Source of the DNA: Gekko japonicus
Taxonomy: Eukaryota
Direction: 5' to 3'
DNA: 64,000 bases
NCBI RefSeq assembly: GCF_001447785.1
Contig: NW_015164664.1
Coordinates: forward strand, 774,274 to 838,273
This document shows, piece by piece, positions 3,190 to 56,770 of this stretch (the stretch's first letter is position 1; each line of letters begins with the position of its first letter). Under the pieces are notes generated by a model. That model ran no database searches and had not been told where the DNA came from. It saw only the letters and a program-made list of their open reading frames with translations. Made by a program: the position numbers and the translations under genes.

Positions 3190-3960
3190 GAGGCCGGGCC
3201 AGGTTCACGGCTCGCGGTCCGCATCCCGCATCCCGCCAGGCCAGGGAGGAGCGAGGCGGGAAGGCTATAAAGCTCTTGGCTGGGCGCGCTCGGGACGGGA
3301 CATGGAGTCGCTGCACCGCGCCGTCGGGTTCCTGGCCGTCGCAGCCGGTAAGCAGCCCGCTCGCCTCTTGCTAACTTGTCCTCGCCTCACTCGCCAGCCG
3401 CAGGCGGAAGGGACTCGGTACCGGGACCCTGCCTGTGGTGTCCAGGGTCTGTGCTACGGACCCGGTGGGAAGCTGGGGTCCCTCCCTCGGCGCCTCCGCC
3501 TGCCGCGGAAACGAGCAGCGCCGCCGCCTGTGCGCCTGGTTTTCGCCGCGGCGCTCCTTCTGCGCTCTCCGCGCCTTTTGCAGGACTCGAGCGGCACGAC
3601 ATGGCTGCGAATCGCGATCCCGCCTGACGTCGGAGCAGTTTTTCAGCACGATATTAAACCGAGTTATAGCCTTTGTTGTTGTCCATGGCTCAGCGGGTCA
3701 AAACTTTTGTGACGATCGCCCCGTTTTTCTTTGTTCCTCATCCTGCAGCTCAGCGCAGTCCCGACTCCCGCGGCTCCTGGTTTGGCCCTTTCTCCTGCAG
3801 GTCCCCTTCGGCTTCGCGCATCTCACTTCTCACATCCCCACCCGCGCGCCCCCCCTTCACCCCCCACGCACGGCGGCTTGTTTCCTTGCACGTCTGAATA
3901 TTCGTCTTGGGTATCTGGCTGCCACGTAAAGGCCTTGAAGTTGCCAAAGATCCACTCCCC
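3190..3960 (+). promoter_or_regulatory. CpG island promoter of gene A with TATA box
   Basis: CpG-dense GC-rich block; GAGGCGGG at 3253-3260 and TATAAA at 3266-3271, 31 nt before the ATG at 3302 (GACATGG Kozak). Confidence 0.75.
3302..3347 (+). CDS. Gene A exon 1 (MESLHRAVGFLAVAA-G)
   Basis: Kozak ATG after the TATA box; G|GTAAGC donor, phase 1. Confidence 0.75.
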
Positions 3961-6900
3961 GCTTGTCCGATTAACGGCTTCAGTATGTGTCCCCTTCCTC
4001 CCTTCCAGGATCTCTCTTGCTGGCGGTCCATTTCTACAGCTCCGCCGGGCCTACTCCGCTGATCCCCAGCTCTGCTCTTGGGGTCCTTCTGCTCCTTTTA
4101 TCACTTCTTCTGGCATATGCAGGTGAGAAAATGGTAGATGTTCTCTGGAAGCTTTGGAAGGCAGACTGTGTTTTGCTCTGTATATGTTGATTGATGTTAG
4201 TGTACTTTTGCCAGTTTAACTGACCTAATGTGTAGGGAGAGGCCAGGGCTTTAGTGGAGGAGCATCTGCTTGGCATGCAGAAGGTCCCAGGTTCAGTCCC
4301 CGGCTTCTGCAGTTGAAAGGATCAGGCAGTAGGTACTGTGAAAGACCTCATCCTGAGACCCTGGAGGGCCTCTTCCGTCCAGTGTTCATGTGGACCACAG
4401 ATTTCAGCTCCCATCACAGTATCTGGAAACTTGCATACAATGCCAATGAACACGTGTGCCAGGTTACTAGTTCTCATGGCTGCAGGCACACGTTTTGTTT
4501 ACTTTGTTTATATTCCCCCTTCTCTCTAGTGGGGATGCAAAGCAGCTTACATAGGTCTCTCTCTTCTCCATTTTATTCTCACAGCAGGTCCGTGAGGTAC
4601 ATTAGATTGTGCTGTTTGCTCGAGGTCATACAGCAGGCTTCCATAACAGACTGGGGATTCAACCCCGGGTCTCCTGGTCCAGCCTTCTAACTGCTACACC
4701 ACAGTGGCTTCATCCCTGGTTCCCAAGTATGGCTTCCATGGATGGAGTTGTGTCTCTTTAATTGCTCGGGGCTGTCATTAGTTAGGTTGAGAGGCCGTTT
4801 ATAAAACCTGTGGCTAAAGATTCTGTTTATGCATTGTACTGACTTACATTTTGCAGCCCTACAAGTTTGGTAACAAAACTGTTGCTTGTCTTTTTTCAAT
4901 CCTCCGTCAACAGGGGTACGGAAGAGCCGCCAGAATGCCTCCTTGTTTGTGTCACTCTGCCTGACGGTTTCAGTGCTGTGGTGTGGCTATGGAGTGATCC
5001 AGATCCTGGCTGGGCAAGGGGTCCTCCCCGGCACTGCTGACCTGCGCAACGCAGCCGTGCCTGGACTGGTAGCCTTCAGTCTGGGGCTGCTCCTCATCAG
5101 CCTGGTGGGCTTCCTCCACAAAGAGGTCCACCTTGCCATGATGGCGTCTGCCATTTCTCTGGCCTGTGCCCATGAAATCGCAGCCGTTTATGATGCTGCC
5201 TTCGGATCGTCTGCTGTGGCCTGCAATTACATGGTTGTCTGCTTTGTTGGGGGCTACGTCGGGTTGGGGAAGTGCCTCTTTTTTCTAAGCCAAGAGAAAA
5301 TTGCCCTGCCTGGCACAGACCTGCCCAAGAAAGAGGCCAGCAACAGGCAGGGTCCAGACAGTGGCACAGGCTCAAATGACTTGACTGCATTCGGCTTGAT
5401 CCTGAACATGCTCTCGGCCAGTGTCTTGGGCTGCCGGCTCCTGGGGGTGACTGATGATCTCTTTGTGGGGCAGGTCCCCTGGCTCTGGGCAGGAGGGGTC
5501 TACCAGCTTGGCGCCTCCATCTTCTCCTATCGTTCCCTGGATGCGCTGACTGCCACTTTTTTGGGCTTCACCTCCCTCCTGAAGTTTGGGGAAGGCTATT
5601 CCCTCTTGATCCTGCGCTGGGTGCCTGAGGAGCCCAGCTTCCCCATTCCATTCTCAGTGGCTTTTGCTGTCCTCTTGACCATTTTGGCCGTTTTCATTGC
5701 TATTGACAGCCTGGCTGATGGCCTCTATCTGCTGTTCTATGTGGCCTTGTGCATCGCACTTGCCTGCAGTCCACGAGGCTTTCTGGAAGGGGGCCCTCAG
5801 GGTGTGGCAGTGGCCATTTTTGTGGCCTCCACGCTCCTGACTCTTCTTCACCTTTACAATGGGAAAGCAGAAGTTAAAATCCCGAGGGGGGAGGGAGTGC
5901 TCAAGGCTTTGCTCTCACGTCTCCAAGTTTGCAAGCTCCGGGAGGGGAATGACCTCCACACTCCCTATCTGGGTTACTCCAAATATGCCGATGCCGAAGT
6001 ACTGGGCTATGCATGCAGTGTGCTTGCTTCTTTTGCCATCACAGTGGCAGCAAAGCCAAACTCCCCTCTTGCTACAATAGTCCTACCTTGGGTGGTGGCT
6101 GCAGGGGGGCTCTTGAAGCTTCTGTGTGGTTCTCTGGCTTTCTCCCGTGGCAAGACTTTAGAAAGCAGCGCTTTCATTGTCTATGGGTTTATGTGGATTA
6201 TCTGGGGCATTGCCAGGTATGGGGGGCTGTATGGTGCTGCACGGGGGTTCCAGGTAGCTGTGGGCATTGTCTCGCTCATGCTTTTCAATGCCTTCCTCGT
6301 CCTTTGCACCCTTTTCCTGAGCATCTCCTGGTTCATCTACTCCCTCTCCTTTGAGCTCATACTCATCAGCTTCCTGTTGGATGCGGTTGGTGCCACCTCC
6401 ACTGGTTATGACATTGCTGTCACCATCATCTTTGGCTTGGTCAGCTTCTACTGCTTTCTGAGTGCCCTGGTCAACTGCACTTTTGAGAGTCCTCAGCTCC
6501 CCGTGGGACGTCCCATTGTGAGGCTCAGTGGCTTTGGGGGAGGAAGCACCAAATGTCTTCATTTGCCAGCCAGGAAAGCATCTTCAGTCAAGCAAGTTGC
6601 AGGTAAGGAAACAGTACAGCTGGTGAGGCTGTTTTCTGGGCCATAGGCAGAAACTTTGATCATCTACCTTTATTAAAGCTCCTTCAAAAAGCAGTTTGAA
6701 CACATGCCTTACACTAAGTGAGACTCTAAGTCTATCAGGGTCAGTATTGTCTACTCTGAGTGGCAGTGACATGCCAGGGTCTCAAGTTGAGGTCTTTCAC
6801 ATTATTTACTACCTGAACCTTTTAACTATGTAGTATGTCTTGAGTCCCAGAAAGGCAGATTATAAATAACATAAATAAATAGTTTAAAAAGTGGTGATAT

Positions 6901-9900
6901 TGGGGATCAAATCCAGGACCTTTTGCATGCAACACTGATGTTCTATCACTGACCCACACCTCCTCTTTCAGTTGATGCTGTACACTATTCACCAGATTGT
7001 ACAGGGAGCTCCTATCTTGTCAGCAGACTTGGCTTTTTGTTCTGATTTTGGACACTTAAATCCAGGGGTCCTTTCGTAGAAAAAGAGCTAGGGGAACTCA
7101 TTAGCATAACTCATTAGCATATGCCACACCCCCTCACATCACCGGAAGTGTGTCATAAGGCCACACCTCCTGACATCACCGGAAATGTGTCATAAGGCCA
7201 CACACCCCGCCCCCAATGGTCCCGGCTGCCGGTGCCGGCCTTGCAGCTCCACTGCCGAGCCCCATGAGGGGCCCGGCGGTGGACCTGCAAAACTGTGTTC
7301 CCCCGCATCCCCCCCCCAAATGACCTCTGGAAACTGCCTTTGGAAACCTTAAGAGTCAGTTTAAAAGTCCAAGACAAGTACTGGTGTTTTAAGAGAAGGG
7401 GTTTGACTACTGGAAAGAGTGTACCAGCCTTCAGGAAAAGGAAATGACCTCTGCTTAAATCTATTTTGCCACCTCAGACAAAACAGCCCTAAGGCAGTGT
7501 ATAAATTTAGCATATAAATGCACACAGCTGAGCTTAGTTGTCTCTTGCAAGTCCTTGCACCAACAAGCTAAGCAGGGCTTGCCTAGTTTATAATCTACCA
7601 ATGGACAGAAAGAGTCAAGGTACAGTGTCCTGCACTCCCTCATCTGTGGGTCTGTGGCCTGGCATTGTTAACCACTAAGCCCATCCTTTGGTTTCAGAGA
7701 TAATGAAGAAAGGGGGCGTGTGTGGGATCCCCACAGACACGGTATATGTTCTTGCAGCAGCCTGCTGTCAACCTGATGCTGTGGAGAAGGCTTACAAGTA
7801 AGGGGCAAGTTCTCCATCCAGGGTTCCTCTGGCGATCTAATGCTGGGGGTGGGGGAGCTGCTATGTTTCTTGGGTCTAACACAGTCATGGACAGAAACCA
7901 GTGCAACTCACCTTCCCTTAGCAACAACCAGGACACCTTTTGTAGCAGGAACTCCTTTGCATATTAGGCGACACACCCCTAATGTAGCCAATCCTCCAAG
8001 AAGAAGAGCTCTGTAAGCTCTTGGAGGATTGGCTACATTAGGGGTGTGTCGCCTAATATGCAAAGGAGTTCCTGCTACAAAAAGAGCCCTAGAACCACAC
8101 TCCTGCACAGTGTCTCTCTTAAACTCTTACTGATACTCTCCTCCATGTAGATCTCCATGTGATACTCTCCTCCATGCAGATCTCATCCCTTTGCACATGC
8201 TTGGTTCACAACTCGCATCTACATAGCTCTTCTCAATGACACTGGAGTAACCTGCCAACTTCACACATTGCTTCCCTTCCTCATTCACACGCCAATAGCC
8301 ATGACTTTGTTCTGAATCAGCAACCCAGGAAGAGGCATGGGAGATAATTCTTGGGTCCGGGAGTTGAGAGGATGGATTGTGTAGGCACGGTTACCATGAT
8401 CAAGGAATGTGTCTACTTTCAAGGCATGGCTAGGGTCTTCAATCTGAACTTGCATATTTGCTAGACTTATTGAACCTCTTTGTTCTCTCTCTCACCCTAG
8501 CACAAAGCACCAGGCTCAGGACCGTCCCATGTCGCTCTGGATTTCAAGTCTGAAACAGCTGGAACCGGCCAAGCATCTGTTCAGCCCTGTCCTCTGGGAT
8601 TTCATGGATGCTGCATGGCCATCACCTATCAGCTTGGTGATTCCAAGGGGTTAGAGAATCTCTTCTTTGCTGCTCAGACTTCTCCTCTTTAACCCTTCCC
8701 TGTTTTTTGGATTCCACTTCTCTGTGTGGTGCTCCTGTAAAGGGCCATTGGTCTCAAGAATCTCTTCTGAATGGGAGAGCTTTGATGCTGAGCAGCTCTT
8801 TTGTTTTTTCCAATGTAGGTGAATGGGTGGATTACCTGGGCATGAAAGACTCTGCTAAATATGTTGGTACCCCTCAGAGCGTAGCTATTCGCATTCCAGA
8901 TTGCTCGGTCACTACCCATCTGATTGACTTGGTGAGCTAATCTAGAACCTCTGCCTTTATGTGTCTCTGCCTTTAGGGTTGTGAAAGAGCATGGAGAACT
9001 TTGGTGAGCAGTCCAGGGATACACTCTACCACTCACCTCTTAAATGATAGGCTTAAAATAAAATATAGGTGAAATCTGTGGGGTTTGTATATCTGAGCCC
9101 TGCTTTGATAGCTTGTTCTGTACCAGGCTTTTCAGTTTTAGAGGGGTCTGAGACCTTGGTTGGTCAAGACAGAGGATGGAAGGAGAAGACAAGTACTACA
9201 TCAGTGTCCAAAGGACAGTAGGGGTTTATGTCAAATCAGGGAAACTGATGGGAGGTAGTTAAGGAAAGTCTGGTTGCCTAGGGTCAGAAACTGCTTGTTT
9301 GTTTTAAAAAATGTCCCCTCATAAGGGCAGGAAACCTTTTTTTTAAAAAAGCATGTCATCTTTATTTAATATGAATTCCTTGACAGGTGCAGTCCATAGG
9401 GAATTGCCTCATTCTAGGATTTGCTCTAATATGGGAGGAAAAGCCACCCCCTGTAAATCTAACCCTATGCATGCAGTTCTCCTTGATCTTATGAACAGCC
9501 TTATGCTCTCTTTCTCGGTCTTCAGGTTGGCCCAATTACTGTCACATCTGCCAATCCGACAGGAGAAGCAGACACCACTCACCACAACCAGGTGTATGCC
9601 AAGCTAGGAGACAAGGTAAACTCTATGCAAGTGGTATCAAACATGTGGCCCGGGGGCCAGACCAGGCCCTCGGAGGGCTGCAATCCGGCCCGTAAGGCCC
9701 TGGCTGTTTCCTGCTTCCTTTCCCAGTTCTGCTGCTGTTGTTACATTACAGCTTACTTTACCAGACTCTCTCAATCACACAGGAGAGGTAGATAGGCAAG
9801 CATCTCCTGTTCTATTGAGAGAGGCTGGTAAAGCACTGGCTGAGGCTCCTCCCCCTCCTCCTCCCAGGGGGAGGGAGGGAACCCAGAGCTCGCTTTCAGG

Positions 9901-12900
9901 CCAGTCTGCCTCAATCATATTCAGGACACAAAGGGAAGCCTTTCTTTTCTTCCACTGGCTGAGGCTCCTTCCTGAAGGGAGGCAGGCAGGATGTTGTTGC
10001 CCATCTTCAAGAGGTCGGCTGATGGAGAATTTAAACCGGTACACCGGCTCGAACGGCTGCTGGAGAGTTGCTCGGCAATTGCCTTCTTCGCGGGAGGAGA
10101 TCAAAGCCTGTTTCCGCTTCTTCCGAAGCGGAATCACGCCAACCTAACACTCCCTCTTAGGCGCTGCTGCCTGCTTGTCCCCCCCCCTCGCTGGGGAGCG
10201 ATGCGCTGGGCTAGAAACTGCCCAAACTGTCAAAAGCAGCCGTCGCCCACTTCGCACAAAAGTGAAAGTGCGTCAGTCCTCCATCTTGGCTCGACCGGAA
10301 GCCCTGGCATTACATTTTATGACACACATGGCCCGGCCCAACAACGTCTCATTTATGTCAGATCTGGCCCTCATAACAAATGAGTTCGACACCCCTGCTG
10401 TATGCAATTGCTTGTCCTCATGGCAGACCCAGCTCCCATGATTTTAAAGGGAGCTTCTTAAACCTTTAGGTTACCAGAGCTTGAGCTCAGTGCACCTCTA
10501 CTGAGTGGAACTTTGTGGGTTCAAACATCTAGAGCAAGAGTCCCCAGTGTGATGCCCATGGGTACCAACACCTCTCCTGGTGCCTGCCGAGTGTCTTTCG
10601 AAAGTGGAAGGGGCCAAATGGGGCTTTGCCCTGCAGGGTTTCTGGGTGGCCATCGGAAATCTGACTGGCTCTGCAGATTTTTCTAAAATGTTGCTTTGGC
10701 AGCAGCTGCCACCACATCACAAGGATCTTAAGCACTGTGTTCATTTTAAAAGATATCCTGTTAAACAGAACTTTTGCCCGAAGCGCTGAAGAGTTATACA
10801 TAACCTCGCTCTATGACTCTGCCTCCTGTGGCAGCCATTTAGTGGCTGCAACTACCACCCTGTGTCAGACTTCCAAAGGTGCCTGCAGGTTCAAATAAGT
10901 TGAGGACCCTTGTTCTAGAAAGACCCAAAACTTAAGTGCTTCTGATTTGCTCAGGATCGTGAGCTGCTATTACAGAGAGATGCATTCACTACAGCTGTGA
11001 AGGGGTGGGGGGAGGCAAACAACTGAGCCTCTTCAGTTACCTATCCTCTTTCCCCCCAGGAAAGAAGAGCAAGACCCAAGTTAAACTGGAGAAGAGAGAG
11101 GGCACCCCCCTGCCCTCCACTCTCCATTTGTCATATGAAAGAAAAAGGCAGGAAGGATGCTGTTTTCCATCTAGCTCAGAAGTGTGTCCATGACATTGGA
11201 AAGCACTAAGGCAGGATGTACGTCTTGTATAAATTACCAGACCAAATCTGGAGAGAGCTTCCTCTCTTCACTCAAAAAATGTCTGATCCTTTCTAGGTGG
11301 ATGCGGTTCTTTGTGATGGACCTTCTCCAGAGAACATAGCCTCCACAGTGGTGGACTGCACCAAGATTGGGAGTGGGCACATTGGGTTCTTTAGAGTTGG
11401 CCTTGTCCCTAAATCCCAGGTCAGCATTATCTCATTGTTCCTTCTCTTGTACAATAATTTTTGATGTGTTAAGTCAGTCACATTGTTTATTAGAAGCCAT
11501 GTATCATTGCAAGCACAGCACTATACGTACACAAAGTCTGCAACCCCCAATAGACCTGATTAAATATAGACAGACAGATAGATAGATAGCTATAGATATA
11601 GATATAGAACTTCTATACAACAGGTAGTACAATTGGGGGCCTTTGGGCATATATACAAAAATGTAAATATATTGGCACTCCAAAATATCTACCATCCAGG
11701 GCCACAAAGGATGTTATCTTTCTTTTAATAAATTGTTATCCCACCTTCTTCAAGGCAGCTTAGAGCAGGGGTGTCAAACCTACGGCCCGCAGGCCAGAAG
11801 CAGCCTGCCCAGGGTTTTAATTTGGCCTGCGAGTGGGGCTCTCTTCTCTCCCCCCTCCACTGCCCATACTCACCCTTCTGAGCTGGAGCTGCCTCTGAAT
11901 GCAGGGAGCAGAGGATGGGGCTGCCAAACTTACCAGTTCGCTCAGCCATTGAGTGCGTTCCTCTCTGCCTCCCAGCCACCACTCCCAGCCTCCATCAACC
12001 TCATCAAAGGTAGGGGACCTGGGGTGTCTTTCTGCTGTGATCCTTGGGCTTCTTCTTGTTTTTTTATTTTAAAAATTGCATTGCCAAATCCCACTATTCC
12101 CCACCTTTCCATTTTAGGCAGGCATCTTTTAAGGGTGGGAGGGAGCGTTTGGGACCAACCACAGTTAAAATATAGAATTCTACAAACTCAAGGAGCTCCA
12201 GTTTTGCAGAGAAATATTAGCTTTAACATCACGATCCCTCCTAATATGGGGCTCCAATGGCATATCTCTGCTGCCTGGCATTATATTTTATGACACACAT
12301 GGCCTGGCCTGACAAAACCCCATTTATGTCTGATTGACCCTCATAACAAACAAGTTCAACACCCCTGGCTTACAGGCTGTACACATTTTTTCCATTTTGT
12401 TCTCACAACGACCTGTGAGGTAGGTTAGGCTGAGAGAGAAAGCGATGGGCCCAAGGTCACCCAGGTGGCTTCAGTGGGAGTTTGAGCCCAGGGCTCAGGC
12501 TGACACATTAAGGACTACACCACACTGGCTCTCTGGAAGAACAATCTCATAAATGCTTTCCTTGAAGCCACGCACGTATAATCTCTTGATATTAACTTTG
12601 CTGAGAAGAGTCCCTCTTGCTAACACAACATCCCTGCAAGCCACAAGTATTCTGGAAGATCTCCATTTCTGACAGAGATTACCCAAAATCAAATGGGTGC
12701 ACTCAAAAATCTAGAGGGCTTGCCCTCTGCACTTGGCAGCTCACAGTGCAATAGTATTGCTTTGCCCAGCTCCTAGAAATCAATGCATTTTATAGAGCAT
12801 CAACTGTGCTGGTGACTTTTGCAGTTGGAGTCTGAATGTAACCCTGTGTAGTCTGTCTTCTAACTGCAAGAAAGTCAGCCTGTGTATGCAAAATACCTAG

Positions 12901-13454
12901 GGTTGCTAATCTCAAGGTGGTGGCTGGAGATTTCTCACTCTTACAACTGATCTCCAGGTAACAGAGATCAGTTCGCCTGTAGAAAACTGTGGCTTTGGAA
13001 GGTGGACTCAATGGCATTATACCCCATTGAAGTCCTTCCCCTCCCCAAATCCCACCCTCCTCAGGCTCCACCCCCAAATCTCCAGGTATTTCCCAATGCA
13101 GAGCTGGCAACCCTAATAATAGCAGCAGCTGTGCCTTGAGACCAGGAACTCTTGAATACTGCCACGACTTCATTCAGAGGAGACTAAACTAGGAGGAGAA
13201 GGCTACAGACCCATGGAACACTCATCCAGTCTTGCATTCTTTGTCTCCATTCTCAGGTGTTACAGATTCTGGAGCGGGTCCAAAGAAGATACCAACCAGG
13301 CCACACCAATAATGCCCTGGTCATGGAGGGCAAGGAAGAGCAGCAGACCCTGTGCAGAGCCTTCCTCAGCAATGATGCTCATGTTCAGGGAAACTCACCA
13401 ACATCATATACCAACAAAGCATTCTGTACTGATGAAGGAGGTGCCCCTCAGTGA
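3302..13454 (+). CDS. Gene A: 873-aa multi-pass membrane protein, 3x GPR1/FUN34/YaaH (SatP)-like repeats plus C-terminal Sua5/YrdC-like domain (9 coding exons)
   Basis: Manually spliced exons 3302-3347, 4009-4122, 4914-6602, 7698-7797, 8501-8649, 8819-8931, 9526-9615, 11297-11419, 13257-13454. All introns are GT-AG and phase-compatible; total 2622 nt with no internal stop seen. YrdC motifs: GVCGIPTDTVY, AIRIP, TSANPTG, ASTVVD. Confidence 0.88.
4009..4122 (+). CDS. Gene A exon 2
   Basis: ttcctcccttccag acceptor; SLLLAVHFYSSAGPTPLIPSSALGVLLLLLSLLLAYA; G|GTGAGA donor; phase 1-1. Confidence 0.8.
4914..6602 (+). CDS. Gene A exon 3 (bulk of the membrane domain)
   Basis: Lies within the 586-aa ORF 4886-6646; acceptor cag at 4911-4913, donor G|GTAAGG; highly hydrophobic, with SatP-like repeats. 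Confidence 0.93.
7063..7329 (+). mobile_element. Non-autonomous hAT-like MITE (CAGGGGTC...GACCTCTG family) in gene A intron 3
   Basis: Imperfect TIRs; near-identical inverted copy at 34031-34476; partial copies near 23627 and 38526. Confidence 0.7.
7698..7797 (+). CDS. Gene A exon 4 (start of YrdC domain)
   Basis: tttcag|AG: EIMKKGGVCGIPTDTVYVLAAACCQPDAVEKAY; AA|GTAAGG donor. Confidence 0.92.
7929..8090. repeat. Palindromic MITE (perfect ~64-bp arms) in gene A intron 4
   Basis: 7938-8001 is the reverse complement of 8019-8082, separated by a 17-nt loop. Confidence 0.85.
8501..8649 (+). CDS. Gene A exon 5
   Basis: ccctag|C: TKHQAQDRPMSLWISSLKQLEPAKHLFSPVLWDFMDAAWPSPISLVIPR-G; donor GTTAGA. 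Confidence 0.88.
8819..8931 (+). CDS. Gene A exon 6
   Basis: tgtag|GT: EWVDYLGMKDSAKYVGTPQSVAIRIPDCSVTTHLIDL; donor GTGAGC. Confidence 0.9.
9526..9615 (+). CDS. Gene A exon 7
   Basis: ttcag|: VGPITVTSANPTGEADTTHHNQVYAKLGDK; donor GTAAAC. Confidence 0.92.
9628..10397 (+). mobile_element. hAT-type non-autonomous element
   Basis: Degenerate left TIR, right TIR gttcgacacccctg; 3' part shared with 12270-12367. Confidence 0.65.
11297..11419 (+). CDS. Gene A exon 8
   Basis: ttctag|: VDAVLCDGPSPENIASTVVDCTKIGSGHIGFFRVGLVPKSQ; donor GTCAGC. Confidence 0.9.
11766..12367 (+). mobile_element. hAT-type non-autonomous element (CAGGGGTGTCAAAC TIR)
   Basis: TIR caggggtgtcaaac / gttcaacacccctg; 8-bp TSD gcttagag/gcttacag; related copy at 9628-10397. 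Confidence 0.75.
12899..13114. mobile_element. MITE with AGGGTTGC/GCAACCCT termini; family copies at ~27512-27720, 33309-33520, 57240-57449, 63696-63895
   Basis: Terminal inverted repeats and a shared core (acaactgatctccag...ctggagaaaatggctg...ggagggtggact). Confidence 0.7.
13257..13454 (+). CDS. Gene A exon 9 (terminal coding exon)
   Basis: ttctcag|: VLQILERVQRRYQPGHTNNAL...YTNKAFCTDEGGAPQ*; its start aligns with the gene B tail VMQIFEKVK. Confidence 0.85.
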   Translation: MLQILERVQRRYQPGHTNNALVMEGKEEQQTLCRAFLSNDAHVQGNSPTSYTNKAFCTDEGGAPQ

Positions 13455-18989: not shown

Positions 18990-20490
<1,501 letters not shown>

Positions 20491-40654: not shown

Positions 40655-43600
40655 GATGAGAAAACAGAGTTGTACTTACCTGTAACTGTTGTTCATCAAC
40701 GTCTTCTGTGCAGACACACAATGGGACTGTGCCTGTGCAGGCCAGCCACGGACATTTTGTTTCTAGCTCAAAAGCTCCAAAATGGGGGCGCCCCACCTCT
40801 CTCAGGGCTAGTGGATTTGCAGGATTCCTGCCCAATGCATCACATGCTCTGACAGTGGGCACCCCCTTCCCTCAGTTCCTGCTAAGCCTCCATGAGTCCC
40901 CCCTCCCCTTTTGGCACAATAGGCCTAGTGAGAACTCACAGCGGGGCAGGAGGGAGGGAATTTGTGTCTGCACAGAAGATGTAGATGAACAACAGTTACG
41001 AGTAAGTGCAACTCTGTTTTCATCTTCTGTCTTCTTATGCAGCCCCACATTGGGACCATTAGCGAGCTACTCACTGGAGGTGGCGGCATGAGTCTCTCAT
41101 GGGAACAGAGCCTGCCGAATAACCTTGCCCATATCTGCTTCTTTTCTTGCCTGTAGATCTAGAGCATAAGGTTCTTGCCTGTAGATCTATCGACCAGGTT
41201 GCTGCCTTGCAGATATCTAGCAGAGGAACCCGCTGATTAAAAGCGGTTGATGACCCCTGGGCCTGGGTAGAATGTGCCTTCACATCAAGAGGACACGGCT
41301 CTCTGGATGCTCTGTAGCAAGAACAGAAGGCAGCAACTACCCAACTAGACATGGACTGGGTCGATGCAGCTCTGCCCTTCTTGGGGCCCCAGTATTAATA
41401 AATAATGCTTTATCTTTACAGAAAGTTCTGGTTCTTTCTAAATGATCTAGGAGAGCCTTCCTAACATCAAGGGTATGTAGGGCCTTTTCTGCTTGTGAGC
41501 TCAGAGTGGGGAAGAAAACCAGTAGGACAATTTCCTGTGCCAGGTGGAATTTGGAAACAACCTTAGGAAGGAAGCCTAAACTTGGGTGTAACACAACCCG
41601 CTCATTGAATATCTTAAGAAAAGGTGGATCAACTCTGAGCACAGCCAGTTCGCTAACTCTCTTGGCCAAAGTAATGGCTACTAAAAATGCTAACTTCCTA
41701 CAGAATAAGGTTAATGAACAGGAGGCTAAAAGCTCAAAGAGAGGTTTCATCAGGCTAGCTAACACTAAGGGTAAAGACCACTGTGGAACAATACAGGATG
41801 CAGGGGGAAAGACATTGGGCAGTCCTTTTAGAAAGTGCTGAGCCAATTTATGTGCAAAAACAGTAGTCCCTTGCACTTCTTCATGAAACATAGCAATGGC
41901 TGCCAGGTGAGTCTTCACTGAGGACACAGGTAGACCTGTTCATACTAGGGACGATGCCAATGGGCAGGTGAAAGGGCATTCCCCTCTAGCAGAAGCCCAG
42001 GACTCAAACCAAGCCACTTCCTGGCATAGGAATACCTAGTTGGTTTACGGGCCTGTAGTAGAATATTCAGAACTCCCTGGGAGAAGGAACGCACTAGGGC
42101 TGGATCCTCCATACTATTAAATATAGCTTTGCTACATCATGATGTAGTACTGGACCATGCATTAGCAGATCTGAAATGGGGCGGTGGGGGGAGGTATGTA
42201 GTCTCCTCTTGCTAGGTGTACTAGCTCCAAGAACCAGATCTGGTGGGGCCAGAAAGGACACCATTAATTTGATCTATCATTTTCCCTATGACCTTGTTCA
42301 GGAGAAGGAAGGAAGGAAAGAAATAGAAAAGTGTGCCTGACCAAGGGATCTGGAATGCATCCCCCAGAGAAGTTGGGCCACTGCCCACCAGGGAGCAGAA
42401 CTCTGGTGCCTTCCTGGATTTTGCCATTGCAAACAGGTCCACCTGAGGGTATCCCCAGGAGTTGAAAATTGCTCTGATGGACTTGTCCTGGATAGACCAT
42501 TTGTAGTTGGTCTGATAGACCCTGCCCAGATTGTCTGCCTCTGTGTTTGAAGAGCCTGCTCTATGGATGGCTTTGGGAACAGCCACAATGCTTATAGTCA
42601 CTTCCCACACTGCAGTTGCTTCTAAGCAAAGTCTCTGGGAACCAGTGCCTCCCTGCTTGCTGAAATAATACATGGTTGCGGTGTTGTCCGTCTGGATCAG
42701 CACCCTCTTGTTCCTGAGAATATCTGAGAAGGAGGTAAGGGCGAATCTTACCACATGAAGCTGCAATACATTAATATGGGGAGTCATTTGCATTAAAGGC
42801 TATTGGCCCTGTACCAGAAAACCTTGACAATGGACACCCTAGTCCAATAAGGATGTATCTATGGTCAGAGTGACCTGAGGAATCCAAAAAGCAAATTGGA
42901 ACCCAGAAAAAAAAATTAGTGTCATCCAGCCACCAATGCAGACACCTGACCCACCACCCTTGGTATAAAAAAACCCCAGTATCCTGAGTGGTGCTAGTTA
43001 GGGTCATACTTCCTCACAAACCAAATCTGCGGACTTCACATATGCAACCTAGCTAGTTGAATTACCATGGTAGTTGTGGCCATTAGCCCTAGTAACCGTT
43101 GAATGTCCTTCACTGATTGCCAATGCTTTCTAATGCAGCTTGACATCATAGCCTTAATGTTCTTCGCTCTGTTGGTAGGCAAATGGCATCAAGGAATGCA
43201 CCAATGATTTGTACCTGCTGAGAGGGTATGAGATGGGACTTTTCCTAGTTGATCACTAGACCTAGGCTGTTACAGGTGGAAATGATAAAGTGAACTTGAT
43301 CACTCAATAGTTCATGAATGTGGACCACAATCAGCCAGTCATCCTGGCCCAGGAATATAGAGCAACCCTGTGTATGTAAATGTGTTACCACAACAGCCAT
43401 ACATTTGGTTAAAATCTCTGAGTACTGTAGCCAGCCCAAATGGGACAGAAGTGTACTCAATCACCTGGGAACCCTGACTGAAGTGTAAGAACTTCCTGTG
43501 AGACTGGTGTATTGAAATATGAAAATAAGCGTCTTTTAAATCAAGAACTGCGAACCACACACCTGGGGCAAGAAACTCAATGACAGAAGAAAGTGAAACC

Positions 43601-45881
43601 ATTCTGAATTTCGAGATTTTAATGAACTTGTTTAATTTTCTAAGATCCAACATTCTTCTTGTCTACTTAAAAAAAAACCTTGAATGAAAACCCCAGGATT
43701 GAAGTCCCTCTGGGACCTGTCCCACTGCACCCTTCCTGAGGAGCGCTCCTAGTTTAACCTTGAGCTCTTGGGTAGGGGTTATCTACAGTGGTTGGGATAC
43801 CAACTCTAACCTGTAGCTATATTGAACTACTGATAACACCCAACTATCAGAAGTAACTTTGTGCCAAGCCTCTATAAATTTGTGCCAGCCTATCCTTGAA
43901 ACTGAAAGCATCTTCTGCTATTGGGATGGCTAGTCAGAGCTTTGTTGGTTGTTGGCCTTGGTCTCTCTGTGGGTTCTGCTGAGGGAGCCTTGGCCGTGAT
44001 GTACCCTTTAATTTTGGAAAGGGAGAGTGACTGGAATGGGCATTGAGGATACGTGAATGACAGCTGGTGCTGGTCGTCTCTGGCTGTTATAGAAAGGGGT
44101 AGCAAAGCCATGCTGCCTTTGTAAGAAGCGTTGCCTGTGAGCTGGAGCTGAGGAGAATATGTTCAGCGACCTGCCTGTTCTTTTTCATGGTAGCAAGGAA
44201 ATCCATTAGGTTGTGAAAAAAGAGTAGATCCTTCAAAAGGGAGATCCTCAACTTCACTGTGTGTCTCTGTTGGGAGTGGAGAGCAGTATGGTGAAGCCAT
44301 GAGCCTCTTGAGAACTGTAACAGAGGCCAACTGCCTGCATTAATTTCCCACTTTGAAAGCTTAATTGCCTTGGATTGGATAAGTCTTGCCAGGGATTCCT
44401 CAGGTAGCTTGTCTAAATACTGGGAAAGACTCTCCCAGAGGAAAAGCTGGTAGCCTCCCATAATCACTTGATAATTTGCTACTGAAAAACAGAGTAGAGG
44501 AAGCATAAAACTTTCTTCCCAAAGCATCCAGATGGCGGCTTCCCCTGTCCAGCGGATGAGTGTTTACTGGCTCATTGGCACACCTGCATGTTCTCTGTAA
44601 TCAATGAAGATGGTGGAGGATATGTAGACAGAAAGTCACAAAAGTGAGATGCTGTGGAAGCCTCCTCCTCCGGCTCATAAAATGGTGATCAGAAGGGAAC
44701 CATAGCTTAACAAACGTCCATGTGTTCTCCTATGTTAGGGTCATATCATGTCCCTCCAATATCTGAGGGTGATGTTCTGCCCATCTGTTCAAATAGGATG
44801 GCGACATGTTGTAAGAGTGTTGAGGAGGGTCAGCTGGTTGCCAAAGGAGGTCTCGATTCCAATGGCAGCAGGGGGCCCGCAGGGATACTAGTCTTTGGGA
44901 TGGATTACACATTCTTCTCCTTATGCTTTGGCTTTTTATGTTTTTTTGCAGGGGGTTCCAAATGAGATCAGGTCTTAGTCGAAGGTCCTGGGGAAGGTGA
45001 ACCTGAATGTCTAGGTTCTGCCTCTGGGGTGACCAAAGCGGCCCTCTTTGGAGGAAGTGGTCATTCTGATGGTTGGGCTCGCTGGAACTGAATGGACCAG
45101 TGGAGGTCCGGAGTGTGGTTTGGTAGTCGGAGCTGAGGGAAGTGGACCTGAAGCAGTCAATTCTGAGCTCAGAACTACTTTGGAGGGAACCAAAGAAAAG
45201 GGCTTTTCCCACAATGTGGCCTTCAGTCTAGAGGCTCTATCTGACCAAGCCTTTGGAGTGAAGCACTGGCAAATCGAACAAGCTTTGACATTATGGGCCT
45301 CTCCCAAGCACAGGAGGCAGAGCTCATGCTCATTGCTGTGTGTCACTTGGAGTACTTTTTGAACAGTGCCTTGGACACCATAGTGAGGGACCACAAGCAC
45401 AACAATCGGTGAAACCCAGATAACTGTGGGTTTACCTTCCTCTAAAATAGAATCTTGAAGCCTGAAAAGCAACTCTCTGATGACGAATGAGAGTCTGTTC
45501 TTTACCAGACGAATACCAACAGAGCATGCTAAAAAGCTTCCAGTCCTTGTGGCGACAAAAATGGAACTGAGGGAAGGTGGCGCCCACTGTCAGAGCATGT
45601 GATGCATTGGGTGGAAATCTCAAGCATGAGCTGGTTCCAAGAGGGGTGGGTTGCCTCCATTTTAGAGCTTTTGAGCTAGAAATAAAATGTCCATGGCTGG
45701 CCTGCGCAGGCATAGTCCCAAAGCATGTGATGCATTGGGTGGAAATCCCAAGCATGAGCCGGTTTCAAGAGGGGTGGGTTGCCTCCATTTTGGAGCTTTT
45801 GAACTAGAAACAAAATGTCCATGGCTGGCCTGTGCAGGCATAGTCCCAATGTGGGGTTGCACAAGAAGACGGAAGATGAAA
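40655..45881 (-). mobile_element. DIRS1-like tyrosine-recombinase retrotransposon (decayed ORFs, intact terminal architecture)
   Basis: Gag-like CLLCLGEAH..C..C (45011-45472), RT LDLRKLNKF...LDLKDAYFHI...PFGL (43245-43653), RNase H/MT-like TDNTAT..KQGG, VDLFA..DAF (42221-42793), and tyrosine recombinase KRVSEL...LDVRKAL...AHST..ICKAATW (41071-41927). Inverted terminal repeats ~40720-40880 / 45563-45850 and an internal complementary region ~40962-41057. Confidence 0.92.
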
Positions 45882-49784: not shown

Positions 49785-49870
49785 TCATACTATTTGGTTC
49801 TTCACCTTCTCAAATATCTGCATCACCTTGGCTGCTGGGACACATCCTTCTCTCAGTATCGTGATACTAC
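49785..49870 (-). CDS. Gene B exon 10 (terminal coding exon)
   Basis: ctcctag|GT: SITILREGCVPAAKVMQIFEKVKNQIV*. Confidence 0.9.
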
Positions 49871-52800
49871 CTAGGAGAGAAGAAAAGGCAGATGAATGCT
49901 CGATCCCGGAGGAAAAGCAAAGGAATGTGGGAAAAAGTCATCCTGGCTGCCTCACCTTACTGTACAAAAGGGCATTATTATATGAGCTTAAATGAGCAGT
50001 CCTTCCTTTAGCAGCCACCCATCATTCAAACTTGCCAGTTTTCCAAGCTGAGTTTGCATCTTAAACATGTAGCCTAACTTCTGCCCAACACAGTGTTCAA
50101 GATAGAGGTACCCCTACTAGGTCAGTCTCTAATGAAAAATTCAGGTAAATATAGGCAAGACTTGGGAGCTGGGGTTTAAAAGACTGAGAGCAGGCAAACT
50201 GCAGAGCAGATATAGAAATGCTGTTTGACTAAAACAGTACCCTGAACACTAGGACATAAATCTGGTGCTCACCTTCGTCTATCTTGGTGCAGTTAACCAC
50301 TGTGGATGCCACCACTTCATTGGACTGCCCGTCACAGAGAACTCCATCCAGCCAGTGTCCAAGGCGCCTGAGGGCGAAAAGGAGAGTAAATGCCACTGGG
50401 TCACTTAAAAACATATGCCCCATTTCACTGGTGTGGCTTGGCATGCCTCCAAGCTCCCTTTGCTTGGGCATAAAGGCTATTTTATAACATTGACTGAGCA
50501 GGAGCACTCACAAGATGACCATGTCATGGTGGGTGCTGTCAGTTTCTCCGCTGGGATTAGCCGAGGTGATTGCCAGGGGACCTGTCATGTCTATGAGATG
50601 GACAGTGACTGTTTGGTCAGGGACTCTGATCATGATGCTGTCTTTTGTTCCCACTCGGTCATATCCATCTCCAACCCCTGGAAGAAAAGAAATGGGACAG
50701 CAGTGGTTCCAAAGCATCTGGTTACCCACACTGCTGTCATTGTTTCATATTTTGGAGATATTATCTATTTGTACCCATAACTCTCAGCACACAGTACATT
50801 AGAATGATGCTCAAGATATTTCCATAGGATTTATCCATTCAGACCTTGTCCAGGACTAGGCATGCTTAGCATCAGAAATGGAATGGAACATGATAGGATC
50901 CAAACACCTTCCTGAGATTAAAATTCCATGGATTGTTGTTAAATGTATTGAAAGGAAAAATGACAATCTTGCCCAAAAGATGGGGGACAGAGTAACTTCA
51001 TGAGGCTGACCCATGACTTTGGCAGAACTTTGTATTTTTTGATCATTCAGATATTTGGAGGGGTTAGGAAAAGGGCAGCAAAAACATCTGCAAGATGGTT
51101 TTGACTCCTGGCCTTCTTTCAAAATAGTGAAATGAGAAAAGATTTTGCTGAAAGCAACACAATGTTATTATGTCTTTGTTGTTTTGAACAACTCCCAACA
51201 CACTATATTCAAGGGAAAAAGGTTTCCCTGTGGACTGTGTCTCTAAGTGGCAGCAGGAGCTGACGTCTCACCTCCTCATCATACTGCTGAATGAGGGAGA
51301 AAATGATGTGGAATTTCCAAAAGAAATAGTGAAGACCAACTAGGATGACAGACACTTTCTGAAAAGCTGAACCAGATTTTAAGAGATGTTCATTCACACT
51401 TTGAAGTTAATGAACAGAACCTGCTCTGGATGTGCTTTAACCATCCATGGGTTTCCCAAGTTGTCTTGACAATTTAGCCTTCATTTCTGGCATTTTCCCC
51501 ACCCTTCCTCCTGAGCTCCTTGTGGCCTTGACAGTCTCCCCATTTTATGATAACTCTGCAAGGTAGGTTAAGCTGAGTGATGATGACTGGTCCCAGGTCA
51601 GCCAGTGAGCATGTCTTGAGGCACCTCTGGCATCGCAAAACAAGAGATGGAATAAGTGACGGGATGCCCAGCCAACCCACCTAACGTCTTCAGCCACTCT
51701 CCTTTCTTGACAATGCATCCAATACCTCCAGGGTAAACATTCTCCATAAATTCCCAGAGCAAAGGGCTGAAGGGTGGAGTGGCAGCCCGGAGCTGGTCTA
51801 CGTTGGAGATGAAGATACAGATGGGTTTCTCTTGAGGCCTGTCCTGTGAGGACGAGAGGCAACAGGTAATCCTGGGAATGGATAGGCAAGGTGAAATAAG
51901 CACCACTGAAAGGGCTCTACTCTGCTGCTCTGGTCCAGCCCAAACATCCTGGCTACTCCTGTGTCATCTGAGGTCTTGTTTTGGAGATGACTGAGCTGCC
52001 AGCACTGAATACTCAACCCACCAGGAATGTATTTATTTCATGTACCCTCTCCCACTCATGGTGCTCTGGACTTGGCACTCGGGGGATAAACTAAAGAGAG
52101 GATCTTTGTTAACTACCTGTGTTTAGGATTCCTGACTAGGAAACCTCTACCTTATTTTCCCCGTAGCCAGGAATGTCTTTAATAGAGGATAGTCAAGGGT
52201 AAATAAACATGGGGCTGAACTGCAGTGGCCGGATCTGGGTGGTTTTCAGTTTCTCCAAAGTCTGGAGAAGATCTCAACTGGATCAGCTATTTATAAGGGG
52301 AGGGGCTCAGATGTCTACAAAGTACTTTTGGATCCTATTCTGTTTTCCAGATTATTTCCATTTATCACAAATGTCTCCTTAATTGCTGAGGTTCTGCTCT
52401 GAAAGGTGTTTGGTATATGCAGAAGACGCCATAGAACTGGAAGCTGATGGACTTCTGTTGCACTTGGCAGAGCTTCAGGGATAACGGAAGGGAGACCAGC
52501 CCTCTGGTTTCCCAGTATATATTTGGAAACTCCATAGCAACTAATACAAAAACACAGAACTGCTGTTAAAATCCTGATCTTTCCATACCTGCACTTTAAA
52601 AATAAGTTTCTAGTCCACAGGGATGTTTGATAATGTTATGGGAACAAATACGGGTACAGTTGTGGAAATGGGGATCCAAATTCATTCAGGTTTCCTACTT
52701 CATATAATGTTAACATATGCATATATAATAAATAAAATAAATGTGTAGCTGGACACACAGTGTCCTGTGGCTTGCTGTTGTTGTGTTCATCGTGCATACC

Positions 52801-55800
52801 TTGATTTTGTAGATCTTCTCAATGGCTTCTGGGTGTTTGCATGAGGCAGCTAGAGCATAAACCGTGTCAGTGGGAACTCCACACACCCCTCCTGCATTCA
52901 ACTTTTCAGCAATGGTCCTCAGGCCACTGGTCCGATGGGAACTGGGGCTGATGCAAGGAGGAGAGGAAGGTGCTTCCTTTACAGCTGTCTCTGCCTGAAA
53001 ATGATTGAGCAAACAGGATTTATAGAACTAAAGGAGCACCCCAAGGAGCCATGACTCATGCCTACTAGGCAGGAAAACAGTAGCAGGCAGGGCCTGGACA
53101 GGGTCAATTTGGTCACTCTTGCAAGTTTCAAAATAGAAATCATCCCAGCTGATCTAACTGAAATGCAGAGTTCTAGGGGGACATCTCTTACCCTGAGGAG
53201 GGAGGGTCCCATCAGGATGAGCTCTCTGCCAAATATGCCATTTGCAAGAGATGCTGTCGCTCCATAGATGCAGAGAATGCTGAAGATGATCAACATAACA
53301 ACTGTAGAAAAAAGGACACATGTCAGTGTCTTGTCTCATGGGCCTCTTGGCATTTCTTGTTGCTAGCAAGCATCAGGACTTACTCTCAAGAGGCACCGGA
53401 AGGCTTTCCAGTGTGAAGAGAAGGAAGCAAACAATCAGCACCTCCATCACAGCTGTCAAACATAGGAGCACCAGGTTCGAGTAGGAGGCTGTGGGCAAAA
53501 GAGGAAGAGATATACTTAGTGTTACTGTGGGAGGGCCATAGGCAGGTATGAACTGATGAGTGAATGAGGTTCTCCCTCATTCCCTAGAATGCTCAGTGTG
53601 TTGGCAGGCTTTGATTTTCACAAGAACTGAACATGTGAGTAGGGGAGCTAACAAGGGGAGCTGTGCAAGACAACTCTATGTGTCTTGGCTGCTGGCTAGA
53701 GAACTGGCCTTGAAGCTTTCCCTTTGAGCATGTGCAAGAGCCACAGCAACTGGCTTTCACCCAATGAGCCACAACTCTGCTGGCAGGAGATCAACAATCC
53801 CATATTGTACTTTGGCTTACCTAAAATCATCAGAAACACATTGACAACCAAAAAGGCTACAGCTCCTGCTGTGAATCCCCCATCATTCCTTGGGTCAATG
53901 TTCAGTAAATTGCCTACAAAAAACCCAGCAAAAGAGCTTGTTGGAGCAAAGCAGACCAAGGACAAGGTCAAAGGAAGTGGACAATGTATTGTGTTGTGCT
54001 GCCTTTTAGCAGGGAACTCAGAACAGCTTGTGCAGAGTGGATTTCCTTTGGAGGAGGAAGGACTGGGTACAAGTGGTGGCTTTAAAATATTTGGTTTCCA
54101 AATTGGTTGGATGGGGTATTATGAAAGTACAGAAGCAAGCAGACTGGAAGGCTGTGCTAGTCCCAAAGCATAATCAGATCTGCAAGACCACTTCTCAAAT
54201 GAGAAGCATCCTAGCAGTTCTGCAAGCCACATCCAGACTCTGAAGAAGACTTTCAGGTCTCATAATGGCTGCACACACTCCCCCCCCCCTGCCATCAGAG
54301 CAGGTTCCAGTTTGCTTTTCAGCCCTCCTCCCATGCAGACATGTGTGACTCATATTCCACAAGTTAAAGGTTTCCATACCTCAGTGGTAAAGCCACAAGC
54401 AACCTGTAGCAATAGGACAGAATGCCTGCACTAAATCATCACCCAGGAACATGCCCTATTAGTATCTAATACAAGGACTCTATAACATGATTTTGCCTAT
54501 AGGGCCTCCTGCACTGGACTTTCTTTGGTCATCTGTTGCACCCATCCAGAGGGACAGTTGGGGAACCAACACAGCTTGCGTGTTTGGCACTGTCCCAGGT
54601 AGGTGGTTGACAAGGGATCATCCCACACAGCATATTTTCATTGTGGCCAGCACAGTCAAGAAGAATACAAAGTCAATAGGAAAGAGGGTTATTACCTGCA
54701 AACAGGAGCCAGGTCCAGGTTGCCCAAACAGCTGCATAGCAGAATGGCAAGACTGACCCAAATCTTCTCCCCCTCTGCACTTGCATTCTGCACACGTAAA
54801 GCTGGAATATGGCTCCTGGGATCAACACTGTGGGAATGCTGAGGTGCTGCCTGATGGGGTCTTTCAGAGACCCTTGGAGGGCAGAGAAGGCAGCCAGGCC
54901 ATTGCAGATGAAAAACAAGGCATTAGGAGCATCCGAGGGGGTCAGGTTGGGGGATTTGTTCGACTTTGATAGGCAGCTTTTGATGCTCATCAATGCTTTC
55001 TGGAGCTTTGAACTGGACATAACTTGAACCCCTATGGGAATCAAAGCCTTCTCAGCAACTGAGTTTACCAGGCTGGCAAAAGTGGTGTAGAGAGAGGTGG
55101 CTGTGTAGATACTGCAGGCAACCCCCCAAAATATATAGGCCCCTCTGATTGGAATCTGCTGAATGGTGGAAACTGTCAGAAGGACAAAGAGAGAATTGTG
55201 CACCACCTCGAGAACATCCCTGTTGAAGGACATCAAGAGGATGACACAGGCAGTGGCCAAGAAGAACCAGCCACCGACCATCCCTGCCCGGCTCAGCTGC
55301 ACATTCTTAGATTGGATGAAAACCGTCAGTGTGAACTCTTCCCAGGACATTACCAGCCAGAAAAGGCTGTGGACACCTGACTTGGTGGTATAATAGACAT
55401 CACCTCGCAAGTAGCCATAATAACTGGACAAAACATGGCCGATAGAGTTGATGCTCACCCACACAGTTCCTACATAGAAGTTACACATGTAACCAAAACA
55501 GTAGAAAGAAAAGATAAAGGAACTAATGAAGTCACACAGATTGCCCAGGGCCATGGGCTCAGCATACTTGGTGTTCTTCTTCTCTTCCCTGACATTCTTG
55601 GAAGAACTGCGGCTGGCTGACCCAAGCAAAAGGACATTGAAGAGAGGGTTCCCAAAGCCTGGCAGAATATATCGTTGAGTGATGCCCTTGAAAAGGAGTG
55701 CTATTGCACCATACAACCCACAGATGACAATGGCCAATTCCAAGACTCCTGAGACCACCAGAGCCCACTGGGCAAAGAGTCCGACTGCTTCAAACACCAA

Positions 55801-56770
55801 AGTCAAAGTGATGGCTCCAAAGACGAAGGGCATTATGTAGTTCACAGTTGCAGAACAGAAGGACAGGATGAAAGAAATGAAAATATAGGCCACCAAGCCT
55901 GCTACAGCACCATCCCTGGTGGAGAAACAGGCAGGGTCGAGTGAGGGGAGGGCAGAGACATTGCTGGGACTGAGGGATACATTCCCTGGCAAGAAATATG
56001 CCTCGGAAACAATGCGCGTGGCCCCGTAACTGCCCCATAGGCCAGCAAAAGCCAGGAAAGCTGTGCCACCCAAGTGGTCATACTTCCGGAAGGTCAACAA
56101 GCCAGCTAAGAGTTGAGACAGGCCTCCAATCAGGATGAGGTGAACTCCTAGGGGACCAAACAGAGTTAACCAGCAATGAGAATGGTTGTTAAAAGAGCTG
56201 AGCAACTCAAGGTTAAGACACTTTTGTTTCTGTGCAAATTCTGTGTTATAACTGGGGCATGCAAGGCGCTTCCTCTGGACTTTTAATCAAGCATTTAACA
56301 TAGATGTTGTGAGAGCTGAAAATGTATATTCTAGAAAATAAAGAGAAGATCCTTGTCTCAAAAAGACTTGAACTTTCTAAACAATTTCCCCAGTGTCCAA
56401 AGCTAGTGAGATCATCCCTCTATTTCCTGGTCCGCCCTTATTTATGTCAATGACAAGGGAGCCATTTTGCACAAGAGAGGTTGGGGTAGCGCCAGGTGAA
56501 GGACCCCTGCATCTGAATACAGCACCCACAGCAGAATGATGCTAGTGTTCATTGCTCTGCAGATGCACGGCTTAATTGGTAGAGGTGAAGGGTGAGGCTG
56601 GCTCTCTACTCACCGGCTAAGATGTTTTCCACCCCCTCAGGTTGGATGTTGCTTTGAGCAGAGGAGAAATTCTGCAGGCACACAAGGAATGCACTGATGA
56701 CATTCGCCAGAAGGCCCAGGACAGAGGGCTCGCTATAGAAGACAGCTGCAAAGCCTTCGGTGCTTGCCAT
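49785..56770 (-). CDS. Gene B: 873-aa multi-pass membrane protein, 3x GPR1/FUN34/YaaH (SatP)-like repeats plus C-terminal Sua5/YrdC (threonylcarbamoyl-AMP synthase-like) domain (10 coding exons)
   Basis: Exons 56770-56614, 56147-54696, 53913-53821, 53488-53384, 53301-53192, 52994-52800, 51843-51681, 50677-50512, 50367-50273, 49870-49785. All GT-AG and phase-compatible; total 2622 nt. GGLSQLLAGLLTFRKYDHLGGTAFLAFAGLW resembles SatP [31 protein letters not shown]. YrdC motifs: PTDTVYAL, KxRPxxKP, IRVP, TSANPSG, STVV, LREG. Confidence 0.9.
50273..50367 (-). CDS. Gene B exon 9
   Basis: RLGHWLDGVLCDGQSNEVVASTVVNCTKIDE-G; GTGAGC donor. Confidence 0.92.
50512..50677 (-). CDS. Gene B exon 8
   Basis: VGDGYDRVGTKDSIMIRVPDQTVTVHLIDMTGPLAITSANPSGETDSTHHDMVI; GTGAGT donor. 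Confidence 0.92.
51681..51843 (-). CDS. Gene B exon 7
   Basis: DRPQEKPICIFISNVDQLRAATPPFSPLLWEFMENVYPGGIGCIVKKGEWLKTL-G; GTGGGT donor. Confidence 0.92.
52800..52994 (-). CDS. Gene B exon 6 (start of YrdC domain)
   Basis: AETAVKEAPSSPPCISPSSHRTSGLRTIAEKLNAGGVCGVPTDTVYALAASCKHPEAIEKIYKIK; GTATGC donor. Confidence 0.92.
53192..53301 (-). CDS. Gene B exon 5
   Basis: ttctacag|TT: VMLIIFSILCIYGATASLANGIFGRELILMGPSLLR; GTAAGA donor. Confidence 0.9.
53384..53488 (-). CDS. Gene B exon 4
   Basis: cccacag|CC: SYSNLVLLCLTAVMEVLIVCFLLFTLESLPVPLE; GTAAGT donor. Confidence 0.88.
53821..53913 (-). CDS. Gene B exon 3
   Basis: ttttgtag|GC: NLLNIDPRNDGGFTAGAVAFLVVNVFLMIL; GTAAGC donor. Confidence 0.88.
54696..56147 (-). 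CDS. Gene B exon 2 (membrane repeats)
   Basis: Lies within the 510-aa ORF 54673-56205; ccctag acceptor, G|GTAATA donor; phase 1-1. Confidence 0.93.
56614..56770 (-). CDS. Gene B exon 1
   Basis: ACCATGG; MASTEGFAAVFYSEPSVLGLLANVISAFLVCLQNF...ENILA-G|GTGAGT. Confidence 0.88.

Follow-up and report, generated by a model that had tools for sequence, protein, structure and literature searches.

A stretch of 64,000 nucleotides from Gekko japonicus, here called the window, contains two genes, A and B, which appear to be ancient paralogs, each encoding three SatP-like channel repeats fused to a YrdC domain. B has the full KxR-SxN site, whereas A lacks the arginine of KxR. The question that this locus raises is whether A can still catalyse, and if not, what its pocket is kept for. 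The first-pass annotation proposed that B may be catalytic and A a pseudo-enzyme or ligand sensor, which would fit an obligate heteromer.

Gene A (3302..13454, plus strand) encodes a protein of 873 aa and is a 100% match to Gekko japonicus LOC107108494 (P0001), which is of the si:ch211-153b23.4 type, this being the name on an A ortholog. Three Ato/SatP-like six-helix repeats are followed by the C-terminal YrdC domain, and the bulk of the membrane region is encoded by one large exon (4914..6602, +; 100% match to LOC107108494). The exon maps of A and B come from tblastn. In A five exons, all on the plus strand, encode the YrdC domain, i.e. 7698..7797 (PTDTVY, with Thr631 corresponding to Thr35 of Pa-Sua5, and AYN at its end), 8501..8649 (K652-H-Q654-A-Q-D-R658-P and W663), 8819..8931 (RIP, with Arg724 corresponding to Pa-Sua5 Arg121), 9526..9615 (TSAN and the family-specific D-x-x-H-H) and 11297..11419 (STVV and FRVG, with Ser783 and Arg800). 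They form one frame without a stop and agree letter for letter with P0001. The substitution lies in the second of these exons, where the codons at 8502-8528 encode T K H Q A Q D R P, with the lysine at 8505-8507, CAG (Gln654) at 8511..8513, where the KxR arginine is expected from the alignment, and CGT (Arg658) at 8523..8525. The AYN that precedes TKHQ is supplied by exon 7698-7797 across a GT..AG junction, and a single 906-nt contig of sequencing run X1, which is RNA by guess only, spans 6418-6599, 7695-7797 and 8501-8648 and thus two GT..AG junctions.

In the AlphaFold model of A, whose mean pLDDT is 75.9, 18 helices at the N-terminus precede a linker and a YrdC fold. The model's top Foldseek matches are Sua5/TsaC2, further matches being YrdC, YciO, HypF and SatP, the latter with a TM score of 0.72-0.73 by target length. 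The Pfam profile PF01300 scores 116.6 bits in A and 121.7 bits in caecilian B, whereas PF01184 gives only a weak match to A, with E 0.003, but passes the cut-off in B. Of the SatP-channel motifs only relics are recognisable, i.e. a very conserved EPxxLG in repeats 1-2 of B and AEVLG...YGxMW in repeat 3 of A. Upstream of gene A there are EF-hand exons (L004:325-1982, +), presumably centrin-like, and OGT exons (L009:1251-3012, +).

Gene B (49788..56770, minus strand), assigned by its tblastn exon map and ortholog names to the si:ch211-153b23.3 type, is convergent with A at a distance of ~36 kb. Its motif IYKIK|DRPQEKP is split by an intron (52799..51844), so that the lysine of KxR is the final codon of its exon (52800..52802, -) and the next exon provides D-R-P-Q-E-K (51826..51843, -) with the KxR arginine at 51838-51840. 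The codons and an ungapped alignment to Sua5/TsaC2 structures thus bear out the initial reading of K-H-Q-A-Q-D-R in A against K-D-R-P-Q-E-K in B, and the two genes do have PTDTVY, R[IV]P, TSAN and STVV in common. The reading of LREG for B and of FRVG for A was also correct, but this difference does not distinguish an active from an inactive domain, as both clades retain the arginine while the residue after it varies, with V or I in 5/132 B domains and E in only 21/70 other domains. In the sequence between A and B no Pfam family exceeded the cut-off in 259 stop-free stretches of at least 55 aa, a search that short exons escape. One stop-free stretch of 353 aa (19336-20394, -), itself without a Pfam match, might represent an exon of a gene lying between the two, and retroelement fragments occur at ~40900-45600 (-), with a below-cut-off RVT_1 match at 43342-43662.

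How widely the asymmetry is distributed can be read from the relatives of both genes. When A is aligned by HMMER with P. abyssi Sua5 and with T. maritima TsaC2, Gln654 falls on the KxR arginine without gaps, and in the same alignment R658 corresponds to Asn62 and W663 to His67 (Pa-Sua5 numbering as in PMC6004061, used below). From 488 proteins 381 matched the YrdC profile, and only the 336 that cover >150 positions were counted. The arginine is present in none of 127 A domains (Q 115, L 5, H 3, K 3, gap 1), rows that amount to far fewer independent observations because the A set consists mainly of birds; the relatives of A that were sampled, all without the arginine, range from molluscs to platypus. 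In the B clade it is present in 132/132 domains, together with the KxR lysine (127, and five gaps) and with S and N of SxN (132/132 each), and it is found in 6/7 outgroup fusions and 67/70 other domains, the three exceptions among the latter being eroded frog copies of A. The contrast between the two clades is thus not a chance one. As to whether KxQ and KxR are each conserved in their clade, KxR is so in B, but the residue in A is not strictly Q, since molluscs have L and some members H or K. Two newt A copies (P0063, P0065) read KLKPKDAP, with Lys at the position of the KxR arginine and Arg62 lost. The outgroup to A and B is formed by metagenomic Ato-YrdC fusions of ~1100 aa with intact KxR (P0248-P0251, P0256, P0491, P0495), which end in an additional domain, GAF-like on visual inspection and with no Pfam match.

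As the A and B clades reached a support of only 0.76 in FastTree, a careful tree was calculated with IQ-TREE from 36 YrdC domains (38 rows chosen, two dropped for motif mismatch), the full-length tree being a quick search. A and B are each supported at 100/99 and A+B at 97/94, and the state of the KxR position changes once. Molluscs and amphioxus are found in both clades. The clade-wide absence, the single change of state and the presence of molluscs and amphioxus on either side argue that the arginine was lost once, on the stem of A, after a duplication that would predate the mollusc-chordate split, barring joint horizontal transfer of the pair. This split is more than 500 My old. A substitution specific to one species, or A orthologs that generally have KxR, which would have spoken against the asymmetry, is ruled out by the A domains counted above.

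Apart from the arginine the pocket of A is kept. Among the 127 A domains T35 is present in 124, K56 in 125, R121 in 126, S143, N145 and G148 in 127 each, S181 in 125 and R195 in 126. Four residues of the Thr-site set (T35, H/C67, R121, S181, R195) are thus retained, while position 67, which contacts the threonine hydroxyl (Pa-Sua5 His67, human Cys78), is Trp in 127/127. Position 62 is Arg in 123/127 A and Lys in 132/132 B domains, the pair 58/62 in A being QR, LR or HR in 123 cases and KA in the two newt copies. Between caecilian and scallop the YrdC domain is 66% identical in A and 64% in B, and between caecilian and amphioxus 78% and 69%, respectively, whereas the membrane parts are only 27% (A) and 36% (B) identical between caecilian and scallop and that of A 31% between caecilian and amphioxus. 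In 17+17 diverse rows 71 YrdC columns are invariant in A and 61 in B.

What decay looks like can be seen in amphibians. In A-derived copies of three frogs and one newt (P0225, P0260, P0502, P0508) most or all pocket motifs are gone, i.e. PTDT, RxP, SAN, STVV and the last Arg are eroded, and identity has dropped to 31-50%; because their branches are long, the placement of these copies is unsure. The copies P0225, P0260, P0271/P0502 and P0508 keep the membrane part while the YrdC pocket is eroded. The conservation of A and its contrast with these copies rule out that A is a decaying dead domain, and the kept pocket, the B-like conservation and the amphibian contrast together argue that A is under strong selection to bind something. 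D-x-x-H-H, located after SANPxG, has its D in 127/127 A, 132/132 B and 7/7 outgroup domains, its second H likewise, and is not present in canonical TsaC/Sua5, so that the ligand or the chemistry may be peculiar to this family. D-x-x-H-H is a candidate metal or phosphate site.

Whether such a pocket can adenylate has to be judged from other YrdC enzymes, and everything said here on the activity of A and B is transferred from distant homologs. E. coli YrdC (TsaC) R52A yielded zero transductants, Pandoravirus TsaN R455A formed no TC-AMP, and YciO, which lacks K50 and R52, falls short of TsaC by over four orders of magnitude in TC-AMP synthesis. In Pa-Sua5 both phosphates of PPi are bound by R58 (PMC6004061). 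As exchange of the arginine for alanine kills TsaC and TsaN, A is likely to be poor at adenylation, and by analogy with these mutants we consider it probable that this activity is impaired. For the same reason a catalytic B and a pseudo-enzyme or ligand-sensing A, as first proposed, is still the best reading, although the near-invariant Arg62 of A leaves room for rewired catalysis.

The two genes may also work together. In the gecko they share a contig, A and B have the same longest-contig value in 5/5 further species for which, among the matches listed, NCBI has a record of each gene, and both genes are retained and linked from molluscs to reptiles. In zebrafish values given in PMC8877790 the si:ch211-153b23 genes.3,.4 and.5 shift together; from these values we computed r = 0.79 for.3 versus.4 over 18 conditions, a correlation that is not specific, as sult5a1 reaches 0.78 and si:ch211-207n23.2 0.86. 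With three repeats per chain a dimer is required for a SatP-type six-ring, as stated in a preprint (bioRxiv 10.1101/2025.05.26.656167) that also reports heteromeric dependence among fungal Atos, and human YRDC is described as a dimer whose disruption lowers activity (10.64898/2025.12.03.692196). Hence, from linkage, co-retention, co-regulation and ring geometry alone, we infer an A-B heterodimer; the proposed obligate heteromer draws on the same four points, but homodimers fit the geometry as well. No RNA data sets for A are listed on record. In four sequencing runs chosen by A, two contig runs cover A exons at a depth of 4-6, and the coding exons of B are represented by only one read pair (X20) and a 151-nt piece at the last exon (X1). 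Since the runs were chosen by A, this scant coverage neither shows nor excludes co-expression and gives no support to it.

A possible context for such a unit lies next to B. Just past the end of the window there is a MmgE/PrpD gene that matches cis-aconitate decarboxylase (E 4e-105) and is IRG1L/ACOD1-like (L005:170-3992, contig C4954 ~838,400-842,300, +); it stands head-to-head with B, ~7 kb from the start of B. Approximately 18 kb beyond it a VOC/glyoxalase exon (L007:2354-2593, -) scores over the cut-off (E 0.053), and we take it to resemble GLOD5. Searches of the genome for GATase, PhyH, DJ-1/PfpI and 2OG-FeII_Oxy found none on the A/B contig, which does not establish their absence. The VOC exon agrees with the VOC neighbour reported for IRG1L: according to a preprint (10.1101/2022.06.17.496652), VOC, YrdC, 2OG-Fe oxygenase and GAT genes are common neighbours of pIRG1 and IRG1L, zebrafish IRG1L produces itaconate and IRG1L was lost in therians. 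Zebrafish data listed elsewhere show irg1l co-regulated with.3/.5 (PMC11140123) and with.4/.5 (PMC6980646).

Taken together, we favour the reading that B likely adenylates, whereas the role of A is likely one of binding and regulation, probably within a single ring that serves the IRG1L cluster, and assign to it a probability of roughly 0.45. By analogy with known YrdC enzymes, B would adenylate a carboxylate or carbamate substrate, while A, having lost the key arginine and kept the rest of the pocket, would bind ligands and regulate B rather than do chemistry, as a near-inactive partner that would complete and regulate the six-repeat ring with B. Against this reading it must be said that a pocket 66% identical over >500 My is also typical of an active enzyme. 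We further speculate, although we regard this elaboration as unlikely, that the pair forms a six-pore carboxylate channel, a heterodimer whose two YrdC sites, one functional and the other degenerate, have been kept from before molluscs and chordates diverged, and in which B would adenylate a metabolite of the IRG1L/itaconate pathway with CO2/bicarbonate and A would sense the nucleotide or product and gate export. A and B would then provide transport and control for a metabolic gene cluster of animals that is induced by infection and was lost in therian mammals. If the pair serves the IRG1L cluster at all, it would point to a side of itaconate immunometabolism not yet explored, in fish, amphibians, reptiles and birds as well as molluscs, and to a YrdC domain acting as sensor on a channel. 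The fixed split into a presumably active and a degenerate site also guides further study, i.e. both proteins should be co-expressed, B assayed for chemistry and A for binding.

The conservation of A, equal to that of B, would also be explained if A were an active, rewired enzyme in which Arg658 takes over PPi binding and Trp663 and D-x-x-H-H set another substrate, the reactions of A and B being then either different or successive. One basic residue is retained across positions 58 and 62 in A, including the newt copies with Lys at 58, so that compensation is possible; the side chain at position 62, A-specifically Arg where Pa-Sua5 has Asn and TsaC Lys, is described as hydrogen-bonding PPi, with compensatory swaps known in the YrdC/Sua5 family (PMC10321239), and the Trp at the Thr-hydroxyl contact is invariant. 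However, B and most TsaC-type domains already combine Lys62 with R58, and 5/70 other domains have arginine at both positions, so that a change from Lys to Arg at 62 need not replace anything. Moreover, E. coli YrdC R52A failed despite its Lys at position 62, TobZ and HypF use other substrates yet retain KxR-SxN, and Trp663 is not tied to the loss of the arginine, as the KxR-bearing outgroup has it in 7/7 cases. We regard a rewired A as less likely than the favoured reading. A different division of labour would result if A were a ligand-binding pseudo-enzyme on its own, acting as channel or sensor in the form of a homodimer, whose cells or membranes might differ from those of B. Any dimer of three-repeat chains yields a six-ring, A and B share only 26% identity over their membrane regions, and their copy numbers vary independently, with three A-type copies in a newt and B doubled in several fishes, among the matches listed. 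In addition, a Shigella heat-map list contains.4 alongside irg1l and.5 without.3 (PMC6980646). This arrangement nevertheless appears unlikely to us, for the two genes have stayed together, retained and in linkage, from molluscs to reptiles, the joint movement of.3,.4 and.5 was seen in another zebrafish data set (PMC8877790), and the fungal Atos show heteromeric dependence (bioRxiv 10.1101/2025.05.26.656167).

Finally, the change could be incidental, i.e. species-specific drift, or A and B could both be ordinary TC-AMP synthases for t6A. Databases indeed label both 'threonylcarbamoyl-AMP synthase', and most B orthologs keep the five Thr-site residues of human YRDC, of whose mutants C78A is the best tolerated in the data presented (10.64898/2025.12.03.692196). 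Yet the absence of the arginine throughout A with a single ancient loss contradicts drift, and D-x-x-H-H, shared by A and B and missing in canonical enzymes, argues against a role in t6A. Furthermore, the gecko has a canonical YRDC with KGR..KP on contig C6123, separate from the A/B contig, and since it is present neither A nor B is needed for t6A. We therefore consider an incidental change highly improbable, and the database label is doubtful for the whole A clade. An intronless partial YRDC copy on C11377 is likely a processed pseudogene.

Compared with known systems, A and B resemble most closely the vertebrate Ato family (three Gpr1/Fun34/YaaH repeats plus Sua5/YciO/YrdC), with which they share the architecture, the length of ~900 aa and the dimer-ring hypothesis. 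For this family two clades were reported and a dimer that rebuilds the SatP six-ring was proposed (Ghasemi et al., iScience 2026, PMC13316224), and in all likelihood A and B are these two clades. The main text of that paper has no match for KxR, heterodimer, catalytic, active site, IRG1 or itaconate, and no literature on the KxR asymmetry was found in a search that covered few subscription journals. As far as its text goes, the paper differs from our data in two points: it gives the family as absent from mammals, whereas platypus has an A ortholog (P0102), and it takes the protostome members to have possibly arisen by horizontal transfer, whereas we find molluscs and amphioxus in both clades. 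ESM Atlas matches comprise only the clusters of the A/B family itself. The asymmetry is real and ancient and adds to a family that has so far been described computationally only and whose function is not known. The IRG1L/pIRG1 syntenic block (10.1101/2022.06.17.496652) shows YrdC and VOC genes beside IRG1L, as here, over the same range as A and B, i.e. molluscs, amphioxus, lamprey and vertebrates minus therians; in its discussion of the block the preprint sees no obvious functional clustering and names YrdC merely as a neighbour.

With TsaC/Sua5/YRDC (EC 2.7.7.87) both A and B share the fold, SxN, the TsaC signature Thr and Thr35/Arg121/Ser181/Arg195, but only B has the full KxR, A being without R58 and having R62 and W67. 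Unlike these enzymes, A and B are fused to a membrane part, contain D-x-x-H-H and exist beside a separate canonical YRDC in the genome. E. coli YciO is like A in that it is a YrdC paralog without the KxR arginine and with the rest of the pocket largely kept, and a missing partner or another substrate has been suspected for it. In YciO, however, K50 and R52 are both gone and the protein is soluble and bacterial, whereas in A the lysine is present and a paralog with intact KxR is linked to it. Although the folds are unrelated and the likeness is one of working only, not of membership, the pair may be compared with heterodimeric ABC transporters, CFTR and kinase/pseudokinase pairs, which combine, within a membrane complex, one active with one degenerate, ligand-binding site.
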